Assembly (NCBI GenBank): GCA_038145705.1
Contig: JAYQQF010000009.1
Location: forward strand, 68,422-132,421
DNA from: Alphaproteobacteria bacterium
Lineage (GTDB): Bacteria; Pseudomonadota; Alphaproteobacteria; SMXQ01
Direction: 5' to 3'
DNA length: 64,000 nt
Within the stretch, counting starts at the first letter, position 1. Every line of letters starts with the position of its first letter. Of this stretch, positions 27,545 through 62,759 are shown one piece after another. Both the position numbers and the translations under genes were made by a program. The notes beneath the pieces are model-generated. The model was not told the origin of the DNA, did not search any database, and worked only from the letters and a program-made list of their open reading frames with translations.

Positions 27545-27573
27545 TTGACGGGGCGGTCGTTAAGCTTATAAAT
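27545..27573 (+). promoter_or_regulatory. sigma-70-like promoter (TTGACG - 17 nt - ATAAAT) for the regulator / rfaH-like operon
   Basis: A near-consensus -35 and -10 with a 17-nt spacer, 25 bp upstream of the GTG start at 27598. An RBS-like AAGGGGA precedes that start. Confidence 0.45.
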
Positions 27574-27597
27574 TGCGCAGATTCAAGGGGATAATCC

Positions 27598-28239
27598 GTG
27601 TTTTCGACGAAGCCGCGCGCCAAGACCGAACTGGATTTCCTTGCCGCCCTCGAGCGCGGCGAGGTCGTAACCCAGGCAACCCTGTCGCGCCGGATCGGCA
27701 TCGCCATCGGGCTGGTCAACGCGCTTCTCAAGCGCGCGACGCTGAAGGGCTTCGTCAAGGTTCGCACCGCCCCCTACAAGCGTTACGCCTATTACCTCAC
27801 GCCCCGCGGCTTCGCCGAGAAGAGCCGTCTGGTGGCCGAATACCTCGAAGTTTCCCTCGAATTCTTCCGCGAGGCGCGGCGCCAGTACCAGGACCTGCTC
27901 TGGCGTGCCGAACAGTCGGGCCGCAAGCGTCTTGTCTTGGTCGGCGGCGGCGAACTTGCGGAAATCGCGGTCCTTGCGTCGCGCGATCTCGGCGTCGAAC
28001 TGGTCGCCGTCGTCGATGCCGAAACCAACAGGAGCAGCCTGTTCGGCCTTCCCGTCGTGAGGAACATTGATCAGGCCGCAGATTGGGACGCCGTCATCAT
28101 TACCGACAGCAAGCGGCCGCAGGCTGTATATGACGAGATTAAGGGCATTGTGGATCCCGCACGCTTGCTGGCCCCCGAACTGCTCAAGATTACCCTTGCA
28201 CCGTCCGAGGGGCTCGAAGAGGGGGAGAGCGCCGCATGA
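27598..28239 (+). CDS. transcriptional regulator with an N-terminal winged helix-turn-helix and a C-terminal CoA-binding-type Rossmann domain (Rex-like architecture)
   Basis: wHTH (TQATLSRRIGIAIGLVNALLKRATLKGFVKV) followed by a Rossmann-like module (RLVLVGGGELAEIAVLASRDLGVELVAVVD...GLPVV...DAVII). GTG start. Its stop overlaps the next gene's start (ATGA). Confidence 0.55.
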   Translation: MFSTKPRAKTELDFLAALERGEVVTQATLSRRIGIAIGLVNALLKRATLKGFVKVRTAPYKRYAYYLTPRGFAEKSRLVAEYLEVSLEFFREARRQYQDLLWRAEQSGRKRLVLVGGGELAEIAVLASRDLGVELVAVVDAETNRSSLFGLPVVRNIDQAADWDAVIITDSKRPQAVYDEIKGIVDPARLLAPELLKITLAPSEGLEEGESAA

Positions 28240-28733
28240 AGGGCTGGTACGTCGTCTGTACCCATCCGAATCAGGAAAGGCGCGCCGAGGAAAACCTCCG
28301 TCGCCAGGGATTCCGCCCTTGGGTGCCGAGTTTCGCGCGCCTGCGCCGGCATGCGCGTCGCGTCGAGCGGGTGCGCGCGCCGCTTTTCCCGGGCTATCTG
28401 TTCGTCGAACTTGACCCCGTGCGCGAACCCTGGTCTGCGATCAATTCGACCTTTGGCGTGAAGCGGCTGATTTGCCGCAAGGATGTTCCGGCCAGGCTGC
28501 CCGAGGGGTTCGCCGAAGATCTGCGCGCCAGCGTCGAATCGCCCGATTTCATTGCCCCCGAAGACCGGCTCGATGCCGGAGATCGGGTACGCATTACCGA
28601 TGGCCCGTTTGCCGATGCGGTCGGCTTTATCAGCTCGATCGATCCGCAGCAGAGGGTGTCGCTGCTTTTGAGTCTGCTCGGACGCGAAGTATCCGTCGTC
28701 GTGCCGCGCGACTTGGTCGTCCTCGCTTCCTGA
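28236..28733 (+). CDS. rfaH: RfaH-like specialised NusG paralog (operon-specific transcription antiterminator)
   Basis: NGN domain (MKGWYVVCTHPNQERRAEENLRRQG...PLFPGYLFVELDP) is collinear with E. coli RfaH (MQSWYLLYC...PLFPNYLFVEFDP). It has a KOW-like C-terminus and is 165 aa. There is no secE/rplK context. It lies immediately upstream of an exact ops element. Confidence 0.7.
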   Translation: MKGWYVVCTHPNQERRAEENLRRQGFRPWVPSFARLRRHARRVERVRAPLFPGYLFVELDPVREPWSAINSTFGVKRLICRKDVPARLPEGFAEDLRASVESPDFIAPEDRLDAGDRVRITDGPFADAVGFISSIDPQQRVSLLLSLLGREVSVVVPRDLVVLAS

Positions 28734-28761
28734 GCGGGGCGTGTTTTCAGTCCTGGTCGAT

Positions 28762-28782
28762 GGGTGAAAGCCGTTTTCACCC
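28762..28782 (+). other. perfect 8-bp hairpin (GGGTGAAA-gccgt-TTTCACCC) in the operon leader, 4 nt upstream of ops
   Basis: Read directly from the sequence. No downstream U-tract, so it is not an intrinsic terminator. Confidence 0.5.
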
Positions 28783-28786
28783 AAAC

Positions 28787-28798
28787 GGCGGTAGCGTG
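28787..28798 (+). promoter_or_regulatory. ops (operon polarity suppressor) element GGCGGTAGCGTG, the RfaH recruitment/pause site
   Basis: Exact 12/12 match to the canonical E. coli ops sequence on the non-template (coding) strand. It lies 53 nt after the rfaH-like stop and 36 nt before the first biosynthetic gene. Confidence 0.75.
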
Positions 28799-28833
28799 CC
28801 GAAAGCCGGCCGCAGTCATATGGGAAGGTTCGC

Positions 28834-30813: not shown

Positions 30814-32385
30814 ATGGCTGAACAAAAACCTTTCGATCGCCGTAGCCAGCCGCGCATGGCGCGCAACAAGATCCGCTCCATTGCGGAACTCGGCGAGATA
30901 TCTGCGCGCGCCAAGGCCGAGGGCCGCAAGGTCGTTCTCTGCCATGGCGTTTTCGACCTGTTGCACATGGGCCATGTCCGTCACCTTGAGGCCGCGCGCC
31001 GCGAAGGCCATGTCCTGTTCGTGACGCTGACCGCGGACAAGCATGTCAACAAGGGGCCCGGCCGGCCCGTCTTCACGGAACAGCTGCGCGCCGAGATGAT
31101 CGGATCGGTCGAATATGTCGATTGGGTCGGCATCAACGAAGCGCCCAGCGCGGAGCCCGTTCTTCAGGCCATCAAGCCCGATATCTACGTCAAGGGCAGC
31201 GACTACAAGAACCCGGGCGAGGACGTCACGGGCCGCATCGTTTCCGAACAGGAGGTTGTGGAGGCCCACGGCGGAAAGATCGTTTTCACCGACGACATCG
31301 TTTTTTCCTCGTCGGCGCTGATCAACCAGCATCTGGGGATTTACGAGCCGACGCTTCAGGCCTATCTCGGGCGGCTGCGCGACGAAGGCCGCCAGCAGCA
31401 GCTTCTCGATGCGATTGAGCGGCTCAGAGATCTCAAGGTCGTGGTCATCGGCGATGCCATTATCGACGAGTACCAGTACGTCCAGCCGATGGGCCGTTCG
31501 GCCAAGGAAAACATGATCGCGACCCTGTTCCAGGAACGCGAGGTCTTTGCCGGGGGCGTCTTCGCCGCGGCCAACCATGTCGCCGATTTCTGCGAGAACG
31601 TCACGGTCATCACCGGTTTCGGCGGCTACGACACCTACGAGGAAATGGCGCGCGGCAGCCTCAAGCCGAACATCTCGCTTCGGGCCGTATACCGGAAGGA
31701 AGCGCCGACCACGCGGAAGTGCCGCTTCATCGACCATGGCTATTCGATGCGCAAGATGTTCGAGGTCTACTTCATGGACGACAGGCCGTTGTCTGAAGAA
31801 AGCAGGCTGTCTCTAAACCGAGAGATTGAAAAAGCAATCACGGACGCCGATGTAGTCATTGTCACCGATTTCGGTCATGGCCTGCTTAGTGGCGACAGCA
31901 TCGCGCTTCTGGAGCAGAAATCGAAATTCCTCGCGGTGAATTCGCAGTCGAACGCCGGCAATCACGGCTACAACCTGGTCAGCAAATACAGGCGGGCGGA
32001 TTACGTGTGCGTCGACGGAACCGAGGCGCGGCTGGCGGTCCATGACAAATTTTCCGACATGGAAGATGTCGTAACAAAGCTTTTGCCCGGCCTGATTGAC
32101 TGCAACAACATCGTCGTCACGTTGGGCAAAAACGGCTGCTTCGCGTTCGACCGCAAGGCCGGCCTTTGCAAGGTTCCGGCCTTGACCAGTTCCATTGTCG
32201 ATACGGTCGGCGCGGGCGATGCGTTTTTCGCGCTCAGCGCGCCGATGGTAGCCGTCGGCCTGCCGATGGAACTGGTCGGCTTCTTCGGCAATGCGGCGGG
32301 CGCCATGAAGGTCGGCATCGTCGGCCACCGTTCCTCGGTCGAGAAAGTCCCGATGATCAAGTTCCTGACGGCGCTGCTGAAATAG
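30814..32385 (+). CDS. bifunctional heptose-1-phosphate nucleotidyltransferase / heptose-7-phosphate kinase-like protein (HldE-like, domains in reversed order)
   Basis: The N-terminus is an HxGH cytidylyltransferase-like domain (LCHGVFDLLHMGHVRHL...VTLTADKHVNKGPGRPV), as in HldE domain II. The C-terminus is a PfkB/ribokinase-family kinase (DTVGAGDAFF), as in HldE domain I. Confidence 0.65.
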   Translation: MAEQKPFDRRSQPRMARNKIRSIAELGEISARAKAEGRKVVLCHGVFDLLHMGHVRHLEAARREGHVLFVTLTADKHVNKGPGRPVFTEQLRAEMIGSVEYVDWVGINEAPSAEPVLQAIKPDIYVKGSDYKNPGEDVTGRIVSEQEVVEAHGGKIVFTDDIVFSSSALINQHLGIYEPTLQAYLGRLRDEGRQQQLLDAIERLRDLKVVVIGDAIIDEYQYVQPMGRSAKENMIATLFQEREVFAGGVFAAANHVADFCENVTVITGFGGYDTYEEMARGSLKPNISLRAVYRKEAPTTRKCRFIDHGYSMRKMFEVYFMDDRPLSEESRLSLNREIEKAITDADVVIVTDFGHGLLSGDSIALLEQKSKFLAVNSQSNAGNHGYNLVSKYRRADYVCVDGTEARLAVHDKFSDMEDVVTKLLPGLIDCNNIVVTLGKNGCFAFDRKAGLCKVPALTSSIVDTVGAGDAFFALSAPMVAVGLPMELVGFFGNAAGAMKVGIVGHRSSVEKVPMIKFLTALLK

Positions 32386-33357
32386 ATGATGGACGCAACC
32401 ACCCGCAAGGCGCTTTACCGTGCCATGAGCCGCATCCGCACCGTCGAGGAACGGATCGCGGACCTGTATCCCGAGCAGGAGATGCGCTGTCCGGTGCATC
32501 TGTGCATCGGGCAGGAGGCGGCGGAGGCCGGAACCGGTCTGGCGCTCGATCGGCGCGACTATGCGCTGTCGGGGCACCGGTCCCATGGCCATTACCTTGC
32601 CAAGGGCGGCGATCTCAAGGGCATGATGGCTGAAATCTACGGCAAGGCCACGGGATGCGCGGGCGGCAAGGGCGGCTCCATGCACCTTGTCGATCTCGAT
32701 GCCGGGTTCCTCGGCGCCGTGCCCATCGTCGGCAGCACCATTCCCATCGCCGTCGGCACCGCCTTCAGTTCGAAAATGAAGGGCGAGGACCGGGTGACCA
32801 TGGTCTTCTTCGGCGACGGCGCGACGGAGGCGGGCGTGTTTCACGAAAGCCTCAACTTCGCCGCCCTGCATGCTCTGCCCATCGTCTTCGTCTGCGAAAA
32901 CAACCTCTATTCCGTGTATTCGCCGATGGGCGTGCGCCAGCCTGACGGGCGTTCCATCGCCGGGATTGCCGCGGCCCATGGTGTCGCGACCCAAACGGGC
33001 GACGGCAATGATGCCGAGGCGGTCTTCACGCTCGCCAGCAAAGCAGTGGATGCTGCCCGGCGCGGACAGGGGCCGGTTTTCATCGAGCTTTCCACCTATC
33101 GCTGGCGCGAGCATTGCGGACCCAATTTCGACAATCACATCGGCTATCGCACCGAGGCCGAGTACGAGGAATGGCGGCAGCGAGATCCGCTGGCGCTCTA
33201 CCGCGCCCGGCTGATTGCCGACGGCGCCGCCACGGGCGCGGAACTCGCCGCCATCGATGCGGAACTCGCCGCCGAAATGGAGGACGCCGTAACGTTCGCG
33301 AAGTCCTCCCCGTTCCCGCCGCGCGAGAGCGCCGGCCAGCACATCTACGCTGAGTGA
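32386..33357 (+). CDS. thiamine-diphosphate-dependent dehydrogenase E1 component, alpha subunit (PDH/acetoin-DH E1-alpha-like)
   Basis: ThDP-binding motif GDGATEAG...NN and E1-alpha-like length and pattern. Confidence 0.8.
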   Translation: MMDATTRKALYRAMSRIRTVEERIADLYPEQEMRCPVHLCIGQEAAEAGTGLALDRRDYALSGHRSHGHYLAKGGDLKGMMAEIYGKATGCAGGKGGSMHLVDLDAGFLGAVPIVGSTIPIAVGTAFSSKMKGEDRVTMVFFGDGATEAGVFHESLNFAALHALPIVFVCENNLYSVYSPMGVRQPDGRSIAGIAAAHGVATQTGDGNDAEAVFTLASKAVDAARRGQGPVFIELSTYRWREHCGPNFDNHIGYRTEAEYEEWRQRDPLALYRARLIADGAATGAELAAIDAELAAEMEDAVTFAKSSPFPPRESAGQHIYAE

Positions 33358-33367
33358 GGGCCGCGCC

Positions 33368-34426
33368 GTGACCAGACAGATCAAGTTTTTCGAAGCGCTG
33401 CGCGAAGGCCTTGACCAGTGCATGGGGGCCGATGCCTCCGTCTACGTGATGGGCCTCGGCGTGCCCGATCCGGGCGGAATCTTCGGTTCGACCAAGGGGC
33501 TTGTGGAAAAATACGGGGCATCCCGGGTGCTCGACATGCCGCTCGCCGAAAACACCATGACAGGCGTTGCCATCGGTTCGGCGCTGACGGGACTGCGGCC
33601 GGTGCTGACCCACCAGCGCGTCGATTTTGCCATCCTGTCGATGGAGCAGCTCGTCAACCAGGCGGCCAAGTGGCACTACATGTTCGACGGGCGCATGCGC
33701 GTGCCGCTGGTCGTGCGCATGATCATCGGGCGCGGCTGGGGGCAGGGCCCGCAGCATTCCCAGAGCCTGCAGGCGATGTTCGCCCAGGTGCCGGGCCTCA
33801 AGGTGGTAATGCCGACCACGGCGTATGACGCCAAGGGTCTGCTGATCGCCGCCATCGAGGACGATAACCCGGTGGTCATGCTCGAGCACCGCTGGCTTTA
33901 CGGCATCGCCGACGATGTCCCCGAAGAGGCCTATCGGGTTCCGCTCGGCAAGGCCAAGATCATGCGCGAGGGCGGCGACGTCACCATCGTCGGGCTGTCC
34001 TACATGAGCCTGGAAAGCCTGCGCGCGGCAGATATTCTGAAGGGCTACGGCATTTCCGCCGAGGTCATCGACCTTCGTTCGCTGCGTCCCCTCGATGAAG
34101 CGACGATCCTGGCGTCGTTGCGCAAGACGGGCCGTCTTGTCGTCACCGATACGGCGCACGGGCCTTTCGGGGCGACGTCGGAGATCATGGCGCTCGCGGC
34201 GGAAAAGGCATTCGGCGCCCTCAAGGCGGCGCCGTCGCGGGTCTGCCTGCCCGATCATCCAGCACCGACCAGTCCGGCGCTTGCCGACGATTTCTATCCG
34301 CGCGCCGGCCACATCGCCGCCGCGGTGCTGCGCCAGTTGGGCCGCGAACCGGATGCCGCGCTGTTTGCGCCGCCCGCGGGCCGCCGCCTCGACCAGCCCG
34401 ATTCATCGTTTCAGGGGCCATTCTGA
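33368..34426 (+). CDS. E1 component beta subunit (transketolase-like pyrimidine-binding domain plus C-terminal domain)
   Basis: E1-beta pattern (MPLAENTMTGVAIG...RVPLVVR...VVMLEH...VTIVGLS). GTG start. Confidence 0.8.
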   Translation: MTRQIKFFEALREGLDQCMGADASVYVMGLGVPDPGGIFGSTKGLVEKYGASRVLDMPLAENTMTGVAIGSALTGLRPVLTHQRVDFAILSMEQLVNQAAKWHYMFDGRMRVPLVVRMIIGRGWGQGPQHSQSLQAMFAQVPGLKVVMPTTAYDAKGLLIAAIEDDNPVVMLEHRWLYGIADDVPEEAYRVPLGKAKIMREGGDVTIVGLSYMSLESLRAADILKGYGISAEVIDLRSLRPLDEATILASLRKTGRLVVTDTAHGPFGATSEIMALAAEKAFGALKAAPSRVCLPDHPAPTSPALADDFYPRAGHIAAAVLRQLGREPDAALFAPPAGRRLDQPDSSFQGPF

Positions 34427-35619
34427 TGAGTGAATTGCTTTCCAGCCTGTCGACGTCGCTCGGTACCGCTTGCGCAGTCTGTGGTGGGCCCACGGAGTCG
34501 ACCCTTGAACTGCCCGGGTTGCCTCTGACCGATACCTTCACGCGGACGCCGGTCGACAATCCCGTGAGCGGCATCGACCAGACGTTCAGGTTCTGCGAGG
34601 CCTGCGGGCACGGCCAGTTGGGGCATCAGGTCGCGCCCGAGGTGCTTTACGGCAGCAATTACTGTTTCCGCACATCGGCAAGCCCGACGGCGCGAAAGGG
34701 TACCGATTTCTTCATGTCGCTGCTGGACGAGGTAGCGGCAGGACGCCAGTTTCGCTCGGCCATCGATCTTGGCTGCAACGATCTTTTCCTTCTTGATCGT
34801 GTCGGCGACCGTGCCGCATTGCGCACAGGCGTCGATCCGATCTGGAAGGGGCGCGAGCATGAAATGGATGGCCAGCCCATCCGCGTGATCGGCGCCCCCA
34901 TCGAGGACGTGGATCTTTCCGTGCTGGACCAGAAGCCGGACCTCGTGATGTGCCGCCACACGCTCGAACACATCGCGCGTCCGCGCGATGTCGTTGCGGG
35001 ACTGCTGGCGGGCGCGGCTGACGATGCCATTTTCGTTTTCGAGGTTCCGGGCATCGAGGCTCTGGTCAACCGCTGTCGTTTCGACCAGGTGTTTCACCAG
35101 CATCTCCAGTATTTTTCGATGCGGTCGTTTCTGAAAATGCTGGAAGGCCTTGGCGCCAGGGCCATCGCGGTGAAGTCGCACTATCACGACTGGGGCGCCT
35201 TCGCGGTCGCGTTCGCCAAGGGTGGCGATGGTGGCGCGGCGCCCCTGCTGGATGCCCCGGACGGGGAGAAGATGTCTTCTCGGCTGAAGGTTTTCCGCTC
35301 GCAGATGGCTGCGAACGCGGAATTGATACGATTGATCGATGGACCGGCCTTCGGTTACGGCGCCGCGCAGATGTTGCCGGTGCTCGCCTATCACATGGGC
35401 ACGGATCTCGGGTTTCTCGACGCGGTGATCGATGACGATCCGGAAAAGGAAGGCGTATTCTACTGGAACCTGCCGGTCAGCATCCGGCCGCTCGCAGCGG
35501 TGGGAAGCCTCGATGCCGCGACGGTCCTGATTACGGCGGTCGACAGCGCGCAGCCCATTTTGCGCCGTCTTCTCGAAAGGCGGCCCCGTCACATCATTCA
35601 TCCCTTCAACATGATTTAA
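34426..35619 (+). CDS. C-methyltransferase-family protein (N-terminal zinc ribbon, SAM methyltransferase, C-terminal C-MT domain; TylC3/NDP-hexose C-methyltransferase-like)
   Basis: CAVCG...CEACGHG zinc-binding pairs, a methyltransferase core (IDLGCNDLF) and a long C-terminal domain, as in sugar C-methyltransferases. Confidence 0.6.
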   Translation: MSELLSSLSTSLGTACAVCGGPTESTLELPGLPLTDTFTRTPVDNPVSGIDQTFRFCEACGHGQLGHQVAPEVLYGSNYCFRTSASPTARKGTDFFMSLLDEVAAGRQFRSAIDLGCNDLFLLDRVGDRAALRTGVDPIWKGREHEMDGQPIRVIGAPIEDVDLSVLDQKPDLVMCRHTLEHIARPRDVVAGLLAGAADDAIFVFEVPGIEALVNRCRFDQVFHQHLQYFSMRSFLKMLEGLGARAIAVKSHYHDWGAFAVAFAKGGDGGAAPLLDAPDGEKMSSRLKVFRSQMAANAELIRLIDGPAFGYGAAQMLPVLAYHMGTDLGFLDAVIDDDPEKEGVFYWNLPVSIRPLAAVGSLDAATVLITAVDSAQPILRRLLERRPRHIIHPFNMI

Positions 35620-35640
35620 ATCGGAAGCAGGTCGCAACAG

Positions 35641-36330
35641 ATGTCAGACGGCAAAGCCAGGGAATTCCAGAACCAGAGCCAGATCGACGACTATGGGAGC
35701 CGTGGCGGCGTATCCTTCGGGCCGTGGACGAGCCACATCTGGCGCACCGACCCACGCCACCTCGCCTTTCTGATGTCGCGCTACAAGTTCATTTCGAAGA
35801 TGCTGGCCGGACGCGAAAAGGCCTTCGAGGTCGGCTGCGGCGATGCGGCGGGCACACCGGTCGTGCTGCAAACCGTGAAGCGCGTCTTCGCCATCGATTT
35901 CGAGCCGCTGGTTCTCGAGGATGCGCGCAGGCGCTATGCCGCGGAAGGAGACGACCGGGTGCGTTTCGCCGTTCACGATATCTGCAGCGCGCCGGTGGAT
36001 GAAAAAGGTTTCAACGGCGCCTATTGCCTGGACGTGATCGAGCACGTCCCCGCCGAGCGCGAAGCCCTTTTCATGCGCAACATCGTCGCATCCCTCGATC
36101 GCCACGGCGTGTTCATCATCGGCACGCCCAATGTGACGGCCCAGCAGTATTCCAGCCCGGCGAGCATGGAAGGGCATATCAACCTCAAGAGTGCCAAGAC
36201 GCTGCATGAACTGATGGCCGTTCATTTTCACAATGTTTTCGACTTTTCGATGAATGACGAAGTCGTGCACACGGGGTACTCGCCGATGGCGCATTACCTG
36301 TTCTGCATGGGCGTCGGGGTCAAGTCGTAG
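35641..36330 (+). CDS. class I SAM-dependent methyltransferase
   Basis: Motifs FEVGCGDAAG and CLDVIEHV. Confidence 0.65.
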   Translation: MSDGKAREFQNQSQIDDYGSRGGVSFGPWTSHIWRTDPRHLAFLMSRYKFISKMLAGREKAFEVGCGDAAGTPVVLQTVKRVFAIDFEPLVLEDARRRYAAEGDDRVRFAVHDICSAPVDEKGFNGAYCLDVIEHVPAEREALFMRNIVASLDRHGVFIIGTPNVTAQQYSSPASMEGHINLKSAKTLHELMAVHFHNVFDFSMNDEVVHTGYSPMAHYLFCMGVGVKS

Positions 36331-36353
36331 GAACTGGCGCGGGGTATCGAATC

Positions 36354-37133
36354 ATGGACCTTGGAATCAAAGGCAAGCTGGCGCTGGTGACGGGGGCGGG
36401 TCGCGGCCTTGGCCGCGCGATTGCGAAGTCCCTTGCCGACGAGGGCGCGCGGGTCGTCGCGACGTCGCGGACGGAAGCCGACCTCGATGAATTGATGGCC
36501 GAGATCGGCGGAACTGGCGCCGGGCATCTTTCGGTCCCGATGGACATCGTGCCCGAGGGCGGGCCGGCGGAGCTTTTGCGCAAGTCACGCGAAGGCGGTT
36601 TCGATCATTTCGACATCGCCGTCCATAACGTCGGCGGGACCCTCGACATAAAGGATCCTTTCTGCTCCGTCGAGGACTGGCGGCGCGTCTACCGCTTCAA
36701 CTTCGAGGTCGCGGTCGAGCTGAACGCCTTGATCGTGCCCGCCATGCAGAAGCGCAAATGGGGCCGTGTCGTGCATATTTCCTCGATTTCGGCGATGGAA
36801 AACCATGGTCCCGTCACCTATTGCGCGATGAAGGCGGCATTGACCGCCTATACCCGCAGTTTCGGCGGCGTTGTCGCGCCCGACGGCGTGGTGATCTCGG
36901 CTGTCCTGCCGGGCGCCGTATTCACCGAAGGCGGTTACTGGGATACCACATCGCGGGAAAACCCCGAGCATGTGCGCAAGTATCTGACGGAACGTCAGCG
37001 CATCGGCCGCTTCGGCCGGCCCGAGGAAATCGGTAACTACGTAGCCTACCTCTGTTCCGAACTCGCATCCTTCAGCACGGGCAGCATCGTGCCGGTGGAC
37101 GGCGGGCAGGGCAGGGGCTATTTCGGCCAGTAA
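36354..37133 (+). CDS. SDR family oxidoreductase
   Basis: TGAGRGLG with a YxxxK core (YCAMKAA). Confidence 0.8.
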   Translation: MDLGIKGKLALVTGAGRGLGRAIAKSLADEGARVVATSRTEADLDELMAEIGGTGAGHLSVPMDIVPEGGPAELLRKSREGGFDHFDIAVHNVGGTLDIKDPFCSVEDWRRVYRFNFEVAVELNALIVPAMQKRKWGRVVHISSISAMENHGPVTYCAMKAALTAYTRSFGGVVAPDGVVISAVLPGAVFTEGGYWDTTSRENPEHVRKYLTERQRIGRFGRPEEIGNYVAYLCSELASFSTGSIVPVDGGQGRGYFGQ

Positions 37134-37164
37134 TCAGGGCCAGTAATCAGGGCAGGAACCCAAT

Positions 37165-37953
37165 ATGACCGCCAACGTGCTCAACAAGGATTTGCGCCGG
37201 CTGATCGTCGACATGACTGTCGCCGGGCGCGACGGGCATATCCCGAGCGCCTTCTCGATCGTGGATATCATCACCTATCTTTACGACCATGTTCTTCGGA
37301 TCGATCCGAAGAAACCGGATGATCCCGCGCGCGATTATTTCGTCCTCAGCAAGGGGCATGGATGCCTGGCGCTTTACGTCAACCTGCGCCGGCATGGGTT
37401 CATTACCGATCACGATATCGACACCTTCTGCAAGAAGGGCGGGATCCTCGGCGAGCATCCCGATCTGTGCAAGGTGCCGGGCGCCGAAGCGTCGTCGGGC
37501 TCCCTCGGCCATGGGCTCAGTTTTGCGGTCGGCATCGCGATGGGGCACAAGATCAAGAAGATGAACAACCGCATGTTCGTCCTGATCGGCGATGGCGAAA
37601 GCCACGAAGGCACCGTCTGGGAAGCAGCCCATGTCGCGGCCAATCACCGGCTGAAGAACCTCTGCGTGATCGTCGACTGGAACCGCTCGGGCATGCAGCT
37701 TCTGCCGATGGACGACCTGCCGGCGAAGTGGCGGGCCTTCGGCTGGCACACCCAGGAAATCGACGGCCACGACGAGGCCCAGATCAAGGCTGCCTGCGAT
37801 GCGGTCGCGGCCAAGACGACGGACCAGCCGAGCGTGATCGTTGCTCATACGGTCAAAGGCAAGGGCGTGCCGATGATCGAAGGACACGGCATGTGGCATC
37901 ACCGCATTCCCAACAAGGACGAATACGCTCACATCATGGAAGTGTTGTCATGA
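37165..37953 (+). CDS. transketolase, N-terminal (ThDP-binding) subunit of a split transketolase
   Basis: HIPSAFSIVDI...LSKGHG...GSLGHGL...GDGESHEG, the transketolase N-section. Confidence 0.8.
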   Translation: MTANVLNKDLRRLIVDMTVAGRDGHIPSAFSIVDIITYLYDHVLRIDPKKPDDPARDYFVLSKGHGCLALYVNLRRHGFITDHDIDTFCKKGGILGEHPDLCKVPGAEASSGSLGHGLSFAVGIAMGHKIKKMNNRMFVLIGDGESHEGTVWEAAHVAANHRLKNLCVIVDWNRSGMQLLPMDDLPAKWRAFGWHTQEIDGHDEAQIKAACDAVAAKTTDQPSVIVAHTVKGKGVPMIEGHGMWHHRIPNKDEYAHIMEVLS

Positions 37954-38882
37954 CCCCGGAAAAAGCCCTGCGTCAGCAGTTCGCCGATACCATGCTGGCG
38001 GTCGGCCAGGAAGACAGAGACCTCGTCGTCATCGTCGGCGACATCAGTCACGGCATCCTCCAGCCCTTCGCCAAGGCCTGCCCGGAGCGTTATTTCAACA
38101 TCGGCATCCTTGAACCGACGACCATGAGCCTGACCGCCGGCATGGCCCGCGTCGGTTTGTATCCGGTGCTGCACACGATCGCCCCGTTCCTGATCGAGCG
38201 CTCGTTCGAGCAGATCAAGCTCGATTTCTGCTATCACAAGCTGCACGGCAACATCATCACCGTGGGCAGCGCCTTCGACTATTCGAACCTCGGCTGTACC
38301 CATCACTGTTACGGCGACTTCGCCTTGCTCAAGACCCTGCCGGGTGTCGAGATCACCTACCCGGGATCGGCCGTCGAGTTCGATGCGCTCTTCCGTCAGG
38401 CCTATCGCAACGACAAGGTGACCTATTACCGCCTGCCCGGTACGCCGCACGGGGTCGTGTTCAAGCCCGAGGACGTCGTGCTAGGCAGGGGCATCAAGGT
38501 GGCAGAGGGGTCCGATATCACCCTGATCGGGACCGGCCCGCACCTGCGCACCGCACTGGATGTGCGTGACCGCCTGGCGGCCGAAGGCAAGAGCGCCGAG
38601 GTGCTCTACATCCATACCATCCGCCCCCTCGATTGCGAGCTGGTGCGCGCGAGCATTGCCAAGACCCGGAGGGCCGTGGTGATCGAGGAACACATGCGAT
38701 CGGGCGGGCTCGGCGACGAGGTGCTGAGAGAAACGCGGGACATTCCCGATGTCAAGTTTGCCTCCGCTTCGATCCCGGACCGCTTTGTCACCGGCTACGG
38801 TACCTACGAGGACCTGCTCGAGAGCATCGGGCTGACGGTTGATGGGGTCCTGTCGCTGATCGCGGAAAAGCGTTTCTTCTGA
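37950..38882 (+). CDS. transketolase, C-terminal (pyrimidine-binding plus C-terminal domain) subunit
   Basis: ATGA overlap with the upstream subunit. Transketolase C-section motifs (YFNIGILEPTTMSLTAG...). Confidence 0.8.
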   Translation: MTPEKALRQQFADTMLAVGQEDRDLVVIVGDISHGILQPFAKACPERYFNIGILEPTTMSLTAGMARVGLYPVLHTIAPFLIERSFEQIKLDFCYHKLHGNIITVGSAFDYSNLGCTHHCYGDFALLKTLPGVEITYPGSAVEFDALFRQAYRNDKVTYYRLPGTPHGVVFKPEDVVLGRGIKVAEGSDITLIGTGPHLRTALDVRDRLAAEGKSAEVLYIHTIRPLDCELVRASIAKTRRAVVIEEHMRSGGLGDEVLRETRDIPDVKFASASIPDRFVTGYGTYEDLLESIGLTVDGVLSLIAEKRFF

Positions 38883-38893
38883 AAGTCAGGGAA

Positions 38894-39892
38894 ATGAGCA
38901 ACGAGCGCACGCGAGCCATTGTTCTGGAACAGGTCGCTGCCCTTTCGGGCAAGGCGGATACGGTGGTTTCCGTCTGGGACACGCAGATTTTCCCGCTGAC
39001 CGTCGGCGGGCTGCTCATCGGGTTGCAGGAAATCCTGATGCTGCGCGCGCTCGTGGGGGCGCGGCGCGGCGTTCTTTGCGTGATTTCCCCGAAGGATGCC
39101 GGAGGCGGCGTGGCATTCAGGGCCGGCGATGCCGTGCCGAACCCGCTCGTGGAATTTGCGATGGCGACGCAAGCCATCGAGGAGTTCCATTACCTGCCCG
39201 ACCACGCTGCGGTTGCCGGCGTTGTCGCCGGGCGCTCCGCCCTGCTCTGGCCGTCCGAAACGGTTGCGCGGGAGCGGGCCCATGTTTATGGCACCACGCT
39301 TTACCTTCAGGCCCTTTACGACAGGCTCGGCAGGTTGCCGATGCTCTCGGTAGCAGGTCCCGCAAAAGAGTGGGCTCGGCGGTTTCTGGCTGAAAAATTC
39401 GGCGCCCGCCCGGTCATCGCCCTGCACCTGAAGAACAAGCCTGGTGCGATCAACGAAAGCAACGCGAATTTCCCCGCCTGGGCGGAATTCCTCGCAGAGG
39501 CGCCGGTGCGCCACGAGTGCGGCTTCGTCCTCGTCGGCAACGAGCCGGTGCCTGATTCGGTTCGGTCCCTGCCGCATGTCGTGCTCGCAGCCGACCATGG
39601 CAGCGCCTTGTGCCGCGATCTCGCCCTGATCGACTGTGCCCAGGCGTTCATGGGCATGGCGAGCGGCCTTTGCCAGATGGCGATGTTCGGTTCGAAGCCC
39701 TACATCGTGTTCAAGAATCCCGGACACCATGCCCCGGAAATGCAGCTTGAGCTTGGCGATGCCGATGGCTTCAACTTTTCGGGCAGGGCGCAGAAACTGC
39801 TGCGCATCCTTGATTCCCAAGATGTCCTTTTCCGCGAGTTCGGCGACGTTCTCGATGCTCTCGAATGCGGGACCGAGGAGGCCAGAACATGA
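38894..39892 (+). CDS. hypothetical protein, glycosyltransferase family 9 (heptosyltransferase)-like
   Basis: A weak GT9-like pattern (RPVIALHLKNKPGA...FVLVGNEP...ALIDCAQAFMGMASGLCQMAMFGSKPYIVF). Confidence 0.4.
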   Translation: MSNERTRAIVLEQVAALSGKADTVVSVWDTQIFPLTVGGLLIGLQEILMLRALVGARRGVLCVISPKDAGGGVAFRAGDAVPNPLVEFAMATQAIEEFHYLPDHAAVAGVVAGRSALLWPSETVARERAHVYGTTLYLQALYDRLGRLPMLSVAGPAKEWARRFLAEKFGARPVIALHLKNKPGAINESNANFPAWAEFLAEAPVRHECGFVLVGNEPVPDSVRSLPHVVLAADHGSALCRDLALIDCAQAFMGMASGLCQMAMFGSKPYIVFKNPGHHAPEMQLELGDADGFNFSGRAQKLLRILDSQDVLFREFGDVLDALECGTEEART

Positions 39893-44863: not shown

Positions 44864-45065
44864 ATTGGCGACTTCCTGATATGTCTGGATGCATAAAATG
44901 TTTTGCCGCCCGCAAGGCGCCACTCGATGCAGCCGTTATTCCCGCGCGCTTGAACTTCAGGCAGCGGCAAGCAGGAATTTCCGCTTAGTGAGAACAGCGG
45001 CTTCGGCATTGTCCATTGTGACCGGTCCCGATGTTTCAGAACAGCGAAGTCAGCCGATGGGTGAA

Positions 45066-45668
45066 CTAGTCGCCGTGTCTGCTGGCGTGCTTCAGAATAT
45101 GGGCCGCCGCCGCGCTCAGGTCGGGGAAAATCGCCGTCGCCCGTGGCAGTCCTCGTTCTTTTTCATGTGCCAGCCGATCGATTTCCTTGGCGCCATGGCC
45201 ACTTCGCAGCAGGTAGGTGGTGCCGAGCCCTGCATTGATGCCGGCTTCGATGTCGGTAAGCGTGTCACCGATCATAATGCTGGACGAAAGCTCGATACAG
45301 AAATCGCGGGCGGCCTGCAGAAGGAGACCCGGGCCCGGTTTTCTGCAGTCGCTCGCGCGCCGATAGGCTTCAACAGAAGCTTCAGGATGGTAGGGCGAAA
45401 AATATATTGCGTCGATTTTTGCGCCCTCTATCGCAAGAAGAGTCAGAAGCCGTTCGTGTATTTTTTCGAGCCCCTCCTCACTGAGGTACCCACGGGCAAT
45501 CGCGGATTGATTTGTCACGACGATGACAAGCCATCCCGCAAGATTGAGCGATCGCACGGCTTCCGCCGCGCCAGACAGCAATGCGATCTGATCCGGATCC
45601 GTGATGTAACTTTGCTCACGGTTCAGAACGCCGTCGCGGTCCAGAAAAATTGCACTCCTTTTCCGCAT
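45066..45668 (-). CDS. gmhB: D-glycero-D-manno-heptose 1,7-bisphosphate phosphatase (HAD-IIIA)
   Basis: Motifs FLDRDGVLN, VVTNQS and KP..G. About 200 aa. It is the only minus-strand gene inside the locus. Confidence 0.8.
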   Translation of the reverse strand: MRKRSAIFLDRDGVLNREQSYITDPDQIALLSGAAEAVRSLNLAGWLVIVVTNQSAIARGYLSEEGLEKIHERLLTLLAIEGAKIDAIYFSPYHPEASVEAYRRASDCRKPGPGLLLQAARDFCIELSSSIMIGDTLTDIEAGINAGLGTTYLLRSGHGAKEIDRLAHEKERGLPRATAIFPDLSAAAAHILKHASRHGD

Positions 45669-45865
45669 CGTGTGATGACCTTGGCAAAACTCTCGCGTCT
45701 CAAGTCCGCCCATCCGCAGCGGGTAACGCCCAGAATCTTAGATTGTTTTCAACGAGTCAATTCTTGGTACGCAGGGCACCCATTCTCGGCGCCCCAGGGC
45801 ATGGACATTAAAAATATCCGGCAACAACGGCGATGTATCGAGCCTTATAAGGCGGAGTCAACGAC

Positions 45866-47029
45866 ATGAAAATCTCTCTCTCTCGCATCAAGGGGTTGAT
45901 CAATCACATCCGCAAGGATGGCATCGCCTGGTCGATCCGCAACAGCCTCGTTGTCAGTGGGCTTCGGCGGCATAAACCCAGGAAATCCCCTACGCCGGTG
46001 GGCGGGCAGTTAACAGGTGAGGATACACTATATGCGTTCTATGACATGAGTGTAGACCCCGCCACTTATGACGTCGCCTGGTTCTGCGTCTGCGCTGAAA
46101 TGGCCAGGCGCGAACGCGGTTTGGCGAATCTGGAAATTGTTATCGTTCCCGGGCCGCTCGAGGGATTGCGGGAGGAATCCACCGATTATGATTCATCCGT
46201 GGACCTTCGGGCCCGACATTGGCGGGTGAACAATCTCGTCATTCCGTGCATTTGCCTTTTGCGTCCCCAAGCGGCGCTCCGGATCCTGCGGCGGATTTCG
46301 GATCTCGAGTACGAAGACATCGATCCGAAGAACATATTCCCCCTTGGTTACAACCCGTATTTCTTCCCCGCGCCGATCACGCACGAGGATTTCGCGGCAT
46401 TGAACAAGAAGCTTTGCGAAACCGGGCTGGAGGATTTTTTTTCGGTAGGGCGCATAGGGCGACGCTATGTGGATCAATGGCGTGCATCGGCGCGAGCGGC
46501 GAAAAGGTTGGTTGTCATCACCTTGCGCTACTACAGCTACCATACCGAACGAAACAGTAATCTCGAAGCATGGCTCGAATTCGCAAGGAGTCTCGATAAG
46601 GACTTGTATACGGTTGTTTTCATCCCGGACACGGAGACGGCATTTTCGGAGGCGATGCTCGCAATCGAGAGAGAGTTCATCTTGTTGCGCGAGGCATCGT
46701 TCCTGCTTCACTTGAGGCTCGCGTTTTACGAGGCTGCGTACGTCAACATGGCAGCTCTCACCGGCCCGACGGCGTTATTCACGCTGAATAAGTCATCTCG
46801 TTATATTCTCTTGAAAATGATCGTACCGTCGGCTCCTCTTAATACAGATGCCGCAATGCGAAACCTAGGGTATACGCCCGGTACGGCGCCATCTTATGCA
46901 TCTGAACTACAAAGGTGGGTGTGGGAAACCGACGATGTCGAAGTCATAAAGCGCGAGTTTGTCAAGTTTCAGGCCCTCGCTGAAAAGCAGGGAGTTCCGG
47001 ATGCTCCGCCGGTCGATATCCTCGATTAG
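45866..47029 (+). CDS. hypothetical protein (387 aa, no recognisable family)
   Basis: A long ORF in lower-GC DNA with coding-like periodicity. No motif was recognised. Confidence 0.45.
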   Translation: MKISLSRIKGLINHIRKDGIAWSIRNSLVVSGLRRHKPRKSPTPVGGQLTGEDTLYAFYDMSVDPATYDVAWFCVCAEMARRERGLANLEIVIVPGPLEGLREESTDYDSSVDLRARHWRVNNLVIPCICLLRPQAALRILRRISDLEYEDIDPKNIFPLGYNPYFFPAPITHEDFAALNKKLCETGLEDFFSVGRIGRRYVDQWRASARAAKRLVVITLRYYSYHTERNSNLEAWLEFARSLDKDLYTVVFIPDTETAFSEAMLAIEREFILLREASFLLHLRLAFYEAAYVNMAALTGPTALFTLNKSSRYILLKMIVPSAPLNTDAAMRNLGYTPGTAPSYASELQRWVWETDDVEVIKREFVKFQALAEKQGVPDAPPVDILD

Positions 47030-47082
47030 TCCGGCTACTGCGATGGCTGGTTTGCCGCCTCTGTATGGCGGAATTTTTGCGC

Positions 47083-48501
47083 ATGGGCGAACGAGCGCGC
47101 CGGAAACCCTATTTACCGTTCCATGTCCAATGGCAGGAAAAGCCAGTTTTGTCGTTACCCAATAGGTTAAGCGCGCTTTGGCTGACGCTTCGTTCGAAGG
47201 TCACCAACAACGGCACGTATTTCAATGGCATCCTAGCCGCTTACGTTTCCCAAGCGTTGCAGATGGTCGCGCAAATCATTCTCATCCCGCTTTATGTAAA
47301 TCATCTTGGCGAACAATACTTCGGTGTTCTGATGATCGTCATGACGACGATGGCCGCGACGAACATCATCGCCACATGGTCTATCGGCGGCATCACCCGG
47401 CGCTTTGGTGATTGTTTCAGCCGTGACGATATTGCAGCGCTTCGTGTGCGCTATGCGGCCGCGAAGTACGTTTTTCTGGGTTTCGGCGGGTCGATGATAC
47501 TCATCGAGACCCTCATCGGCCTGGCGATCTGCGGCTACGTTTATTCCAAGCCTGGCGCACATGTTGACTATGACGTCGTGCTGACCATCATTTTTGCAGC
47601 CGTTAATGTGTTCCTGACTGTCGACAACATGGTCGAGGTGGCGGCACTCACGGCAAAGAATCGCTTGTCTGCCGCATACGCCCTGCAAATCGAGAGCCTT
47701 ATTGTTTTTTTCTTTTGCGTCGTCATGTGGTTCGAATTGGGGGGCGGTCTGGCCGGTGTGTTCCCTTCCATGATTGCCGGTGCGATTTGTTCGCGAATTA
47801 CGGTTTGGTTCTATTGGCGCCGCCAGGGCTTGCAACTGCGATGGAGGTGCCTACGCGATGAGGTTCGCGTCGAGGCGGCACAGCTCTTCGATACGTTGAA
47901 GCGTGGGTATCCAATGTATAGTCTGATTTTCGCCGGTCTTCAGATGGATACGGTTGTGCTCGGGATTCTCGGCAACCCGGTGGTTGTCGGAAAATATGTG
48001 CTCATCTGGAAAATCGCCGAGGTCGGCATTTTTCTTATTTGGCGCTTTTCGGAGAATCTGCAGCCGGAAATTTTTCGAGCTTTCGATACAGGAGATCGAG
48101 AGCGGGTGATTCGAATTTATCGCCTTGGGATCAGGTCAATAGCGGCGATATCGGCTCTGGCCGCGATCGTTTATGCGTTGTTCGGAAATTGGCTGGTAAG
48201 AATTTGGATCGGGAGCGGAGCGGTGCCGGAGGATTGGCTCGCTTATGCGCTTGCCGGGGCGGCGATATTCTGGTTGGGAACGGCGCGGCTATCTCAAATT
48301 GTTGCATTCTCGAGTTCCAATCTCAAGGGACTGATACGGGTATCCGCTGTCGAATTGGTCGCTCGTCTTGCGATTTTCGCGGTCTTGGCGCCTTTCGTCG
48401 GATACCTAGCTCCGTTGATAGCGATCAATGCCGTTCACGCTCTCGGCTGCGCCTATGCCTACGTCAAGATTGCCAGGGCGGGTGTCGCGGGTCGCCGATG
48501 A
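47083..48501 (+). CDS. MOP-superfamily polysaccharide flippase (Wzx-like)
   Basis: About 12 TM helices and an N-terminal Polysacc_synt-like pattern (LRSKVTNNG...YVSQALQ...PLYVNHLGEQYFGV). The start is uncertain: ATG at 47083, or TTG at 47149. Confidence 0.6.
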   Translation: MGERARRKPYLPFHVQWQEKPVLSLPNRLSALWLTLRSKVTNNGTYFNGILAAYVSQALQMVAQIILIPLYVNHLGEQYFGVLMIVMTTMAATNIIATWSIGGITRRFGDCFSRDDIAALRVRYAAAKYVFLGFGGSMILIETLIGLAICGYVYSKPGAHVDYDVVLTIIFAAVNVFLTVDNMVEVAALTAKNRLSAAYALQIESLIVFFFCVVMWFELGGGLAGVFPSMIAGAICSRITVWFYWRRQGLQLRWRCLRDEVRVEAAQLFDTLKRGYPMYSLIFAGLQMDTVVLGILGNPVVVGKYVLIWKIAEVGIFLIWRFSENLQPEIFRAFDTGDRERVIRIYRLGIRSIAAISALAAIVYALFGNWLVRIWIGSGAVPEDWLAYALAGAAIFWLGTARLSQIVAFSSSNLKGLIRVSAVELVARLAIFAVLAPFVGYLAPLIAINAVHALGCAYAYVKIARAGVAGRR

Positions 48502-52435: not shown

Positions 52436-53295
52436 AGGGCATATTGCTGGCTGGCGGGAGTGGCACCCGGCTCGCGCCGCTGACATGGAGCATTTCGAAG
52501 CAGCTTCTTCCTATATACAATAAGCCTTTGATTTATTACCCGCTGACGATGCTCATGTATGCGGGTGTGCGTGACATTCTCGTCATTTCGACGCCGCGCG
52601 ATACGCCTATGATCGAACAACTCATGGGCGATGGAAACCAGTTCGGATTGCAACTGAGCTACGCCGTTCAGGAGCATCCTAGGGGAATCGCCGAAGCATT
52701 TTTGATCGCTGAGGAAAGATGCGGCGGTGAACCCGTCTGTCTGGTGCTAGGCGACAATATTTTCCACGGCCATGAATTGCCCGCACTTCTGGATCGGGCC
52801 GCGCGAAATAATGATGGGGCGACTGTTTTCGCCTGCCATGTCTCCAATCCCACGGCCTATGGCGTGGTGACGCTGGATCATGCGGGGCGACCGATCGAAA
52901 TCGAAGAAAAACCCGTTCATCCAAAGTCCGATTTGGCAGTCGCCGGATTGTATTTCTACGATTCTTCGATCTACGATGTAGCCAGAGGATTGCGCCCCTC
53001 GGCGCGCGGAGAACTGGAGATAACAGACGTCAACCGTCATTATCTTACCGAGGGTCGTTTGAGCGTCCAGAAGATGGGCCGTGGCACTGCGTGGTTTGAT
53101 GCGGGTACGTTCGATAGCATGCTGTCGGCCAGTCAATTCGTGCAAATGCTTGAAGCAAAACAGGGCTTGATGATCGGCCTGCCCGAGGAAGTCGCATTCC
53201 GAAAAGGTTTTATTTCCGTTGAAGAGATCACCGAACAGGCCGAGCTGATGAAGAACAGTCCGCTCGGTGATTACTTGAGGAGGTTGCTGGCATAA
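52432..53295 (+). CDS. rfbA: glucose-1-phosphate thymidylyltransferase
   Basis: GGSGTRLAPLT...YDKPMIYYP-like N-terminus. 287 aa. Confidence 0.9.
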   Translation: MKGILLAGGSGTRLAPLTWSISKQLLPIYNKPLIYYPLTMLMYAGVRDILVISTPRDTPMIEQLMGDGNQFGLQLSYAVQEHPRGIAEAFLIAEERCGGEPVCLVLGDNIFHGHELPALLDRAARNNDGATVFACHVSNPTAYGVVTLDHAGRPIEIEEKPVHPKSDLAVAGLYFYDSSIYDVARGLRPSARGELEITDVNRHYLTEGRLSVQKMGRGTAWFDAGTFDSMLSASQFVQMLEAKQGLMIGLPEEVAFRKGFISVEEITEQAELMKNSPLGDYLRRLLA

Positions 53296-53744
53296 TGGCC
53301 TCTCCTGGTTTGGCTCGGCGCGCGTATTTGGTGCCGGTGACGACGATTCAGGACGCAACCGGTACCATCGGCGTCGCGGAAATCGCCGACTTGGCCGGAT
53401 TCGCCGCCAAACGTTTCTATTTTCTCTACGGTGTTAAAGGGCGACGGGGCGGCCACGCGCATAAGCAGTTGCACCAACTGCTGATTGCCCTGACCGGAAC
53501 TGTCGAAATCAAGGTCGAAGCCGGGCCGGAATCGGCGACATTTGTACTGTCCTCGCCGCGTGAAGCCCTGGTCATAAAGCCGATGGTCTGGCGGGATATC
53601 ACGATGAGCCAAGGCGCGGTGTTAGGGGTGCTGGCATCCGAATCTTTCGATGAAGAGGATTACATCCGTGACCACGCTGCCTTTCGCGCCTTGTCGGCGC
53701 CCTCGGAGACCGGCGGCAAAGTACCGTGGACCACGGAACGTTGA
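53295..53744 (+). CDS. dTDP-4-dehydro-6-deoxyglucose 3,4-ketoisomerase (FdtA/QdtA/WxcM cupin family)
   Basis: Cupin core with RGGHAHK..HQ and VWRD, about 149 aa. It sits between rmlA and a DegT-type aminotransferase. Confidence 0.7.
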   Translation: MASPGLARRAYLVPVTTIQDATGTIGVAEIADLAGFAAKRFYFLYGVKGRRGGHAHKQLHQLLIALTGTVEIKVEAGPESATFVLSSPREALVIKPMVWRDITMSQGAVLGVLASESFDEEDYIRDHAAFRALSAPSETGGKVPWTTER

Positions 53745-58767: not shown

Positions 58768-58921
58768 CCGGCTGCGGCCGATGCTGGAACGAGCGTGCAG
58801 GCCGGCCTTCGGCGCTTGACAGGCTGCCGCCAATATTCTCCACAGGGTCTCGTCGTAGAGATGGGGAACGACGCATCTCGTGCGGCGGCGATTCATAAAT
58901 CAACTTATGCGGTACGGTGTA

Positions 58922-60082: not shown

Positions 60083-60092
60083 CGGGTCGATC

Positions 60093-61355: not shown

Positions 61356-61375
61356 TTCTTTTCGGGAAGTGCGCG

Positions 61376-62674: not shown

Positions 62675-62759
62675 CGCGAAGGGCGCGCCAAGCTTCGGCG
62701 CCCCGGCGTTTGCCGGGGTATCATCAAGTTTTCGGCCGACACTGACCGCTGTTTCCGAT

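Follow-up and report, generated by a model that had tools for sequence, protein, structure and literature searches.

The question raised by this locus is whether an rfaH-like gene and a copy of the ops element lying just behind it form a dedicated transcription module for the long glycan operon that follows. The locus lies in a stretch of 64,000 nucleotides from an Alphaproteobacteria bacterium (assembly GCA_038145705.1, contig JAYQQF010000009.1, positions 68,422 to 132,421 of the forward strand). This whole stretch is called the window here, and coordinates are counted from its first letter. In our study, the window was found to contain a MarR_EPS-like gene, the rfaH-like gene, a leader with a hairpin and ops, and a glycan operon of at least 35 kb. 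We consider it probable, at about 0.72, that these parts together act as a genuine module of RfaH-type elongation/antitermination. What was observed directly is the order of the genes and the presence of the element, together with its conservation, strand bias and spacing.

The rfaH-like gene (28236-28733, + strand) started with ATG and encoded a protein of 165 amino acids with NGN and KOW domains. In Pfam, the NusG NGN domain was matched at residues 3-92 (E 1e-19), followed by KOW at residues 115-142 (E 9.6e-5), so that the KOW-like C-terminus noted in the first-pass annotation, which was made from the sequence alone, was borne out. The same annotation had described an RfaH-like NusG paralog outside the housekeeping context and had proposed a comparison with hidden Markov models of the NusG, RfaH, UpxY and LoaP families. 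Among the NCBIfam models, the highest score was that of RfaH TIGR01955 (119.3 bits), followed by RfaH PRK09014 (83.9), UpxY NF033644 (74.8), NusG TIGR00922 (64.8) and LoaP NF033641 (58.2). The curated cut-offs of these models are 144.5 (an equivalog model), 124, 100, 135.7 and 125, respectively; the RfaH models thus ranked first while each family stayed below its own cut-off. The closest solved structure was E. coli RfaH (E 2.4e-16 across residues 1-154), and PDB 9ik0, which stands for the PrfaH/ActX-type in this comparison, matched weakly (E 0.0045). We found 363 database relatives at E <= 1e-5, many of which carry the JGI/NCBI name 'transcriptional antiterminator RfaH' (Hyphomicrobium, Rhodospirillaceae, Kiloniella). 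No secE, nusG or rplK gene was found near the rfaH-like gene, whose neighbours were the MarR-like gene and an epimerase gene, and no second open reading frame (ORF) encoding an NGN domain was present within the window. The 165-amino-acid protein is best read as an RfaH-type NusG paralog and not as a housekeeping NusG, and on both points the earlier description was supported.

A feature of RfaH target operons is ops (GGCGGTAGnnTG) on the non-template strand of the leader, and it was present here. The enterobacterial-type ops that had been claimed for this locus was found as the exact enterobacterial 12-mer GGCGGTAGCGTG at 28787-28798 (+ strand), on the non-template (coding) strand. It was the sole match in the 64 kb, where 0.08 matches were expected by chance. 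The element began 53 nt past the stop of the rfaH-like gene (28733) and ended 35 nt ahead of the next ATG (28834), within an intergenic gap of 100 nt. The conserved hairpin (U)GGGUGAAA-GCCGU-UUUCACCC(A) was located at 28761-28783 (+ strand), ending 3-4 nt 5' of ops. A covariance model of the hairpin and ops, R1, which was built from related leaders as described below, gave a single match in the window, at 28754-28806 with 54.8 bits. The Rfam model of JUMPstart (RF01707) scored 13.7 bits against a gathering score of 35. Because its alignment was confined to the ops part and stayed under the gathering score, we regard the element as JUMPstart-like in architecture and not as a member by the Rfam model. 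Nothing in Rfam reached the gathering score anywhere in the window, and no tRNA was found in it.

The leader was followed by about 30 co-directional glycan-biosynthesis genes (28834-63869, + strand), which extended over at least 35 kb to the end of the window and which we take as the presumptive target operon. The gaps between the genes were short, the largest being 355 nt at 53295-53650. Among the sugar enzymes, Pfam matches were found for NDP-sugar (nucleoside diphosphate sugar) epimerases/dehydratases, an HldE-like kinase/cytidylyltransferase, RmlA/RmlB-like proteins, a DegT aminotransferase and Gfo/Idh; transfer and export were represented by the glycosyltransferase families GT4, GT2 and GT61, a fused ABC (ATP-binding cassette) exporter and FkbM. 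The other matches were thiamine pyrophosphate (TPP) enzymes, C- and other methyltransferases, short-chain dehydrogenases/reductases, ATP-grasp, iron-containing alcohol dehydrogenase and radical SAM (S-adenosylmethionine) proteins. RfaH-type factors serve long glycan operons of this sort.

The arrangement was found to be conserved when relatives were collected from the side of the protein. One genome per species was scanned, which gave 80 loci, nearly all of them labelled Alphaproteobacteria and including the cultured strains Thalassospira mesophila JCM 18969 (L015) and Kiloniella antarctica KCTC 42186 (L021). When the 300 nt behind the stop codon were searched for the 12-mer, 10, 10 and 13 loci had a best match with 0, 1 and 2 mismatches, respectively, which makes 33 of the 80; such a site was present in 2.4% of background 300-nt windows and in 0 of 80 upstream regions. 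The ops consensus across the related loci was KGCGGTAGCNTG. The core GCGGTAGC was invariant or nearly so across the 33 related leaders, with invariant CACCC and GCGGT-GC. An inverted repeat, GGGTGAA-loop-TTCACCC, followed by a 4-nt spacer preceded ops in all 33 non-redundant leaders, and the hairpin was the minimum-free-energy fold in 32 of them. In the alignment of the 33 leaders, 78.5% of the cells were paired, against 33-47% with slid partners, and four pairs changed on both sides. The R1 model was built from this alignment with a hand-specified structure. When it was run over the 80 loci, about 38 had a match directly after the gene, and about 11 others had one on the same strand but 1-6 kb downstream, which brings the loci with a downstream element to about 50 of 80; upstream or antisense matches were never credible in these loci. 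Since it is conserved in relatives, the arrangement of gene then ops is more than chance. RNAalifold, tried on a MAFFT alignment, returned only a 2-bp mini-hairpin in ops; it overlooked the upstream hairpin because indels in the loop misaligned the 5' arm, and the hairpin was resolved by single-sequence folds together with the hand-specified structure. A weak terminator-like stem-loop with a T-rich tail spanned the stop codon of the rfaH-like gene (28721-28749, + strand). Similar sites were present in only 5 of the 33 related loci, against a background of 3.8%, and it is therefore not counted as a conserved part of the module.

The same result was obtained from the side of the element, so that the cis arrangement claimed in the first-pass annotation proved to be real and conserved across many Alphaproteobacteria. 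Here metagenome contigs were scanned for CACCCNNNNKGCGGTAGCNTG, a pattern that left the 5' arm of the hairpin outside the search, and 120 loci were obtained. An rfaH-like gene ended 44-230 nt upstream on the same strand in 71 of them and was located elsewhere in 7, with the element upstream of the gene in 4 of these 7. A further 12 loci were too short to judge, and 30 had at least 700 nt upstream and contained no rfaH-like gene. The 5' arm, although unselected, was found in 78 metagenomic elements, where 82.2% of the cells were paired against 35-51% when slid; the observed covariation score was reached by 0 of 500 shuffles. At the two inner pairs in which the 3' partner is mostly T, the combinations were AT 35 and GT 12 at one and AT 23, GT 10 and CG 13 at the other, and A-C was not found at either. 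A wobble on one strand without A-C favours a hairpin in the RNA rather than a symmetric duplex operator. Stop and ops were separated by a median of 65 nt, and in 94% of 104 cases the distance fell between 40 and 100 nt. In the metagenomic loci L131, L147, L172 and L203, the element was present about 100-200 nt upstream of the rfaH-like gene, which is a UpxY-like order and would place the factor under its own control.

Full hairpin-ops elements (at least 40 bits) were present in at least 10 of the 30 metagenome loci without an rfaH-like gene. The genes after these stand-alone elements encoded CpsB/CapC, Wzy-type ligase/polymerase, Wzc-like kinase, CapD-like, Wzx-like, NeuB, sugar-transferase and FkbM proteins. 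The presence of such leaders before other polysaccharide operons suggests, at the level of sequence, that the factor also acts in trans on these operons. The loci L149, L103, L129, L142, L159, L189, L146 and L090 carry stand-alone hairpin-ops elements and are candidate trans targets.

The partner gene upstream, MarR_EPS-like (27598-28239, + strand), encoded 213 amino acids with a winged helix at residues ~9-98 and a Rossmann-like C-terminal domain. Its stop overlapped the start codon of the rfaH-like gene by 4 nt (ATGA), an overlap that couples the two genes in translation. The protein scored 46.7 bits with TIGR04176 MarR_EPS against a cut-off of 88, and weak matches were found to the N-terminus of NeuD and, in Pfam, to MarR_2, HTH_24 and CoA_binding_3. 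In about 65 of the 80 related loci, the rfaH-like gene was immediately preceded by a MarR-like homolog in the same orientation, and most related loci keep such a gene beside either rfaH or the hairpin-ops element. No UpxZ-like partner was identified beside the rfaH-like gene. In four loci (L017 12523-13254, L018 8540-9266, L058 12755-13412 and L075 11590-12318), the MarR-like gene adjoined the element while the rfaH-like gene lay several kb off; the order of the MarR-like gene and the element varied among them, so that the three parts look like a shuffled triad.

RfaH is the textbook fold-switching transcription factor, and its autoinhibitory salt bridge needs E48. We surveyed the residues of 121 relatives in E. 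coli RfaH numbering and modelled the fold of the C-terminal domain (CTD). Position 48 was never E (A in 71) and position 73 was never R (F in 84, Y in 15), whereas R23 was kept in 119 and Q24 in 120 of the 121 relatives; R16 and T72 were also conserved. Position 20 contained N in 95 and H in 23 relatives, and position 10 was variable (H, L, Q or R). The CTD retained the RfaH-type segment RVxLLLxLLGR with the LLLxLL motif, the equivalent of L142 in 119 of 121 and R138, and the equivalents of I93 and F130 were altered in the window protein. In published work, E48, I93 and F130 were named as required for autoinhibition, and R73 was described as a late acquisition (PMC7593976). AlphaFold2 was run with family alignments of 121 and 31 sequences and gave a predicted local distance difference test (pLDDT) of 86.5 and 87.5, respectively, with a five-stranded beta-barrel CTD both times; of the two forms named in the structure prediction proposed earlier, a helical CTD or a beta-barrel, the barrel was thus the one predicted. 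In Foldseek, the model was aligned over its full length to active or fully recruited RfaH (8phk_P, 6c6s_D), whereas autoinhibited RfaH (5ond, 2oug) was aligned over the N-terminal domain only. These models predict a protein that is always in its active (beta) state and lacks autoinhibition.

The mechanism that we propose takes E. coli RfaH as its model, whose action is reportedly also described in the work of Belogurov and Artsimovitch. When the 118 nt ahead of the hairpin were scanned with the E. coli consensus, which gives weak negative evidence, none of the 93 cases contained a sigma-70-like promoter (background 2.3%). In line with this, we infer that rfaH and the leader probably share one transcript. 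RNA polymerase would then pause at ops, about 65-75 nt beyond the rfaH stop, where the leading ribosome would just have been released. The NGN domain, through R23, Q24, R16 and T72, would bind the non-template DNA of ops and the paused polymerase. The RfaH-like protein would displace or exclude NusG, by which Rho-dependent polarity would be blocked, and the beta-barrel KOW domain would recouple the polymerase to a ribosome, so that the distal part of the long operon could be expressed. The steps of NusG/Rho exclusion and recoupling follow E. coli RfaH (PMC7593976). Specificity would come from ops and from the local production of the factor in cis, not from autoinhibition.

Several points weigh against this reading. 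The TIGR01955 score of 119.3 lies below the RfaH cut-off of 144.5, as do all the NCBIfam scores with respect to their curated cut-offs. Three of the five residues by which E. coli RfaH contacts bases were changed (K10 to H, H20 to N, R73 to F), and for this reason ops recognition is derived here from the co-occurrence of gene and element and not from conserved contacts. AlphaFold2 is unreliable for fold-switching proteins and is unable to exclude such switching here, and the CTD keeps the RfaH-type LLLxLL. About 30 of the 80 related loci contained no element. Alphaproteobacterial promoters may escape the E. coli consensus used in the scan. The searchable literature gave no experimental study of any alphaproteobacterial member. 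Finally, the monomorphic RfaH homologs that were tested in E. coli did not depend on ops (PMC13015549), and ops may for that reason be unneeded for loading here.

A more specific form of the module, which we hold only tentatively, is that the clade represents an intermediate in the evolution of RfaH, permanently active yet using the canonical ops, in which the pause at ops about 65 nt past the stop permits the factor to be handed over co-translationally in cis. A polymerase coming straight from rfaH would be held at ops, and the fresh protein would load onto that very transcription complex; the hand-off is proposed because of the fixed spacing from stop to ops. If this were true, ops recognition would predate autoinhibition and R73. 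A protein that is metamorphic and autoinhibited like E. coli RfaH, activated only by ops and acting essentially in trans, is unlikely, and the adjacency would then mean only that the regulator is clustered with its main operon. The retained Leu-rich LLLxLL (with the L142 equivalent in 119 of 121) and R138 speak for such a protein, as do the stand-alone elements, which imply action in trans, and the unreliability of AlphaFold2 on fold switchers. However, a confident beta-barrel was obtained from two AlphaFold2 alignments, E48 was missing in 121 of 121 relatives, the equivalents of I93 and F130 were changed in the window protein, and the tight spacing from stop to ops is hard to attribute to clustering alone.

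Other explanations concern the nature of the element. GGGTGAA-N5-TTCACCC could be a duplex DNA operator of the MarR-like regulator, which would control initiation while the RfaH-like protein loads in cis without ops. The repeat is palindromic, the gene of the winged helix-turn-helix (wHTH) protein is linked in about 65 of 80 loci and adjoins the element even where rfaH lies elsewhere (L017, L018, L058, L075), and ops-independence of monomorphic homologs in E. coli (PMC13015549) would fit. We judge this improbable, as the non-palindromic core GCGGTAGC is invariant and identical to the enterobacterial ops, A/G opposite a fixed T without A-C fits wobble in a one-strand RNA, and stand-alone elements were found without a nearby marR-like gene. 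Still less credit is given to the element being a promoter, with a -35 of TTCACC, a spacer of 17-18 nt and a -10 of GNAAAT, in which ops would be untranscribed and its resemblance coincidental. TTCACC does resemble TTGACA, an A-rich hexamer often follows ops, and the scan upstream of the hairpin gave no other promoter; but a spacer would not contain 8 invariant nt or be identical to ops, and because this 'spacer' is invariant the promoter is rejected. Moreover, the putative -10 is poorly conserved (CCGAAA in the window), and covariation links the putative -35 to the hairpin's 5' arm, which is not required of a promoter. That the gene is a housekeeping nusG, or a generic NusG without a dedicated target, is hardly credible: the NGN and KOW architecture would be shared with such a protein, whereas TIGR00922 gave 64.8 bits against its cut-off of 135.7 and ranked below the RfaH model, secE, rplK and rplA were missing from the context, and a specific DNA element accompanies the family. 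The RfaH-type module is accordingly the reading that we prefer.

In comparison with known systems, the module resembles that of the enterobacteria in its NGN-KOW protein of about 165 amino acids, for which RfaH was the best profile and PDB match, in the identical 12-nt ops, and in R23, Q24 and R16, which are common to both proteins. As in the enterobacterial RfaH/JUMPstart system, ops is immediately preceded by a hairpin in the leaders of long lipopolysaccharide (LPS), capsule or exopolysaccharide operons. It differs from E. coli RfaH in that the CTD is predicted to be beta and not an alpha-hairpin and that E48 and R73 are missing, and from the JUMPstart leader in the sequence of the hairpin, which lies 4 nt from ops (RF01707, 13.7 vs. 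35 bits). In Bacteroides, UpxY (with UpxZ) is likewise a NusG paralog encoded in its presumed target polysaccharide operon with a small partner gene adjacent. However, upxY is the first gene, with the recruitment signal in the 5' untranslated region upstream of it, whereas the signal here was downstream of the gene in 71 of the 78 metagenome loci with an rfaH-like gene; the UpxY model gave 74.8 bits against a cut-off of 100, and the partner here is a wHTH protein and not UpxZ. LoaP (58.2 bits vs. a cut-off of 125) belongs to polyketide clusters and has an RNA hairpin signal, whereas the context here is glycan. Plasmid RfaH paralogs of the PrfaH/ActX type in tra operons are also encoded in cis and share their transcription unit with an ops-like site, but they control conjugation genes, their ops-like site is located downstream of the paralog's own promoter, and they belong to a different clade (PMC11880322).

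The nearest likeness was found in published surveys of RfaH. In that of Wang et al. (2020, PMC7593976), 18% of 1,922 rfaH genes were alphaproteobacterial, the clusters CL2-CL8 (non-CL1) neighboured envelope-biogenesis genes, and CL4 was linked to a regulator of the helix-turn-helix (HTH) kind. According to the preprint of Tabilo-Agurto et al. (2026, PMC13015549), about 14% of RfaH homologs are predicted to be monomorphic; tested examples were ops-independent in E. coli, some of the ops-binding residues are missing from these homologs, their genes lie within or beside long LPS operons, and their recruitment in cis was proposed. The module shares with these orthologs and with CL2-CL8 a predicted beta CTD, the loss of key ops-binding and autoinhibition residues, a place beside or inside a long envelope-polysaccharide operon and, with CL4, an HTH regulator as neighbour. 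The description of CL4 fits the MarR-like neighbour here, and the two clades may be the same. The difference is that recruitment in cis without ops was proposed there, whereas a canonical ops and its conserved hairpin at a fixed distance after the gene, together with stand-alone copies, were found here; ops beside such genes was reported neither in PMC7593976 nor in PMC13015549.

The earlier description of the module as unusual and possibly undescribed was overstated: alphaproteobacterial RfaH beside envelope genes had already been catalogued in both surveys (PMC7593976, PMC13015549), while the layout of the leader was not found described. In the searchable literature, we found neither a description of a hairpin-ops leader about 65 nt past an rfaH stop or of stand-alone copies, nor a canonical ops paired with a predicted non-autoinhibited RfaH missing E48 and R73, and a search on JUMPstart/ops in Alphaproteobacteria and on RfaH in rhizobia gave nothing relevant. 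The protein and the type of neighbourhood are known. What appears to be new is the conserved hairpin-ops leader placed at a constant interval behind the gene, the occurrence of this leader on its own elsewhere, and its combination with a protein for which a lack of autoinhibition is predicted.

In current models, ops recognition and autoinhibition evolved together and late, enabling action in trans, and the ancestral cis forms needed no DNA signal. The present relatives form a widespread alphaproteobacterial clade in which an unchanged ops goes together with a protein that lacks two hallmark residues and, by prediction, autoinhibition. As cultured carriers exist (Thalassospira mesophila, Kiloniella antarctica), the order of the steps in RfaH evolution is directly testable, and the clade would show how ops is read without R73. 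The covariance model of hairpin and ops could also serve as a simple marker for surface-polysaccharide operons and RfaH regulons in Alphaproteobacteria. Plasmid relatives with about 41% identity (Cereibacter, Bradyrhizobium, Sulfitobacter) were considered as tractable models and set aside, the element and the downstream operon being missing. The plasmid-borne genes of Cereibacter sphaeroides p.A (L206) and Bradyrhizobium sp. ISRA443 (L207) followed a sugar-transferase gene, and neither a hairpin-ops within 7 kb nor a co-directional downstream operon was found; we take these relatives as a different sub-arrangement for that reason.

Upstream of the MarR-like gene, two methyltransferase genes were present, followed by a divergent M23 peptidase gene. 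A weak sigma-70-like promoter candidate, TTGACG-18-TAAATT, was located at 27545-27574 (+ strand) with 9 of 12 matches, and it may be the promoter of the operon; with 1 site found against 1.1 expected in shuffles, it is not significant alone.

Within the glycan cluster, the ORFs at 38894-39892, 44889-45869, 45866-47029, 47065-48501 and 60093-61355 gave no Pfam match. Two sets of TPP-dependent enzymes were present, E1 alpha/beta at 32386-34426 followed by a split transketolase at 37165-38882. The regions 30814-38882 and 58880-63869 contained a C-methyltransferase with a zinc-binding domain, a radical SAM protein, an iron-containing alcohol dehydrogenase and the HldE-like kinase/cytidylyltransferase. 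Judged from the predicted functions of its members, this set of TPP, C-methyltransferase, radical SAM, alcohol dehydrogenase and HldE-like enzymes suggests the synthesis of an unusual branched or heavily modified sugar.

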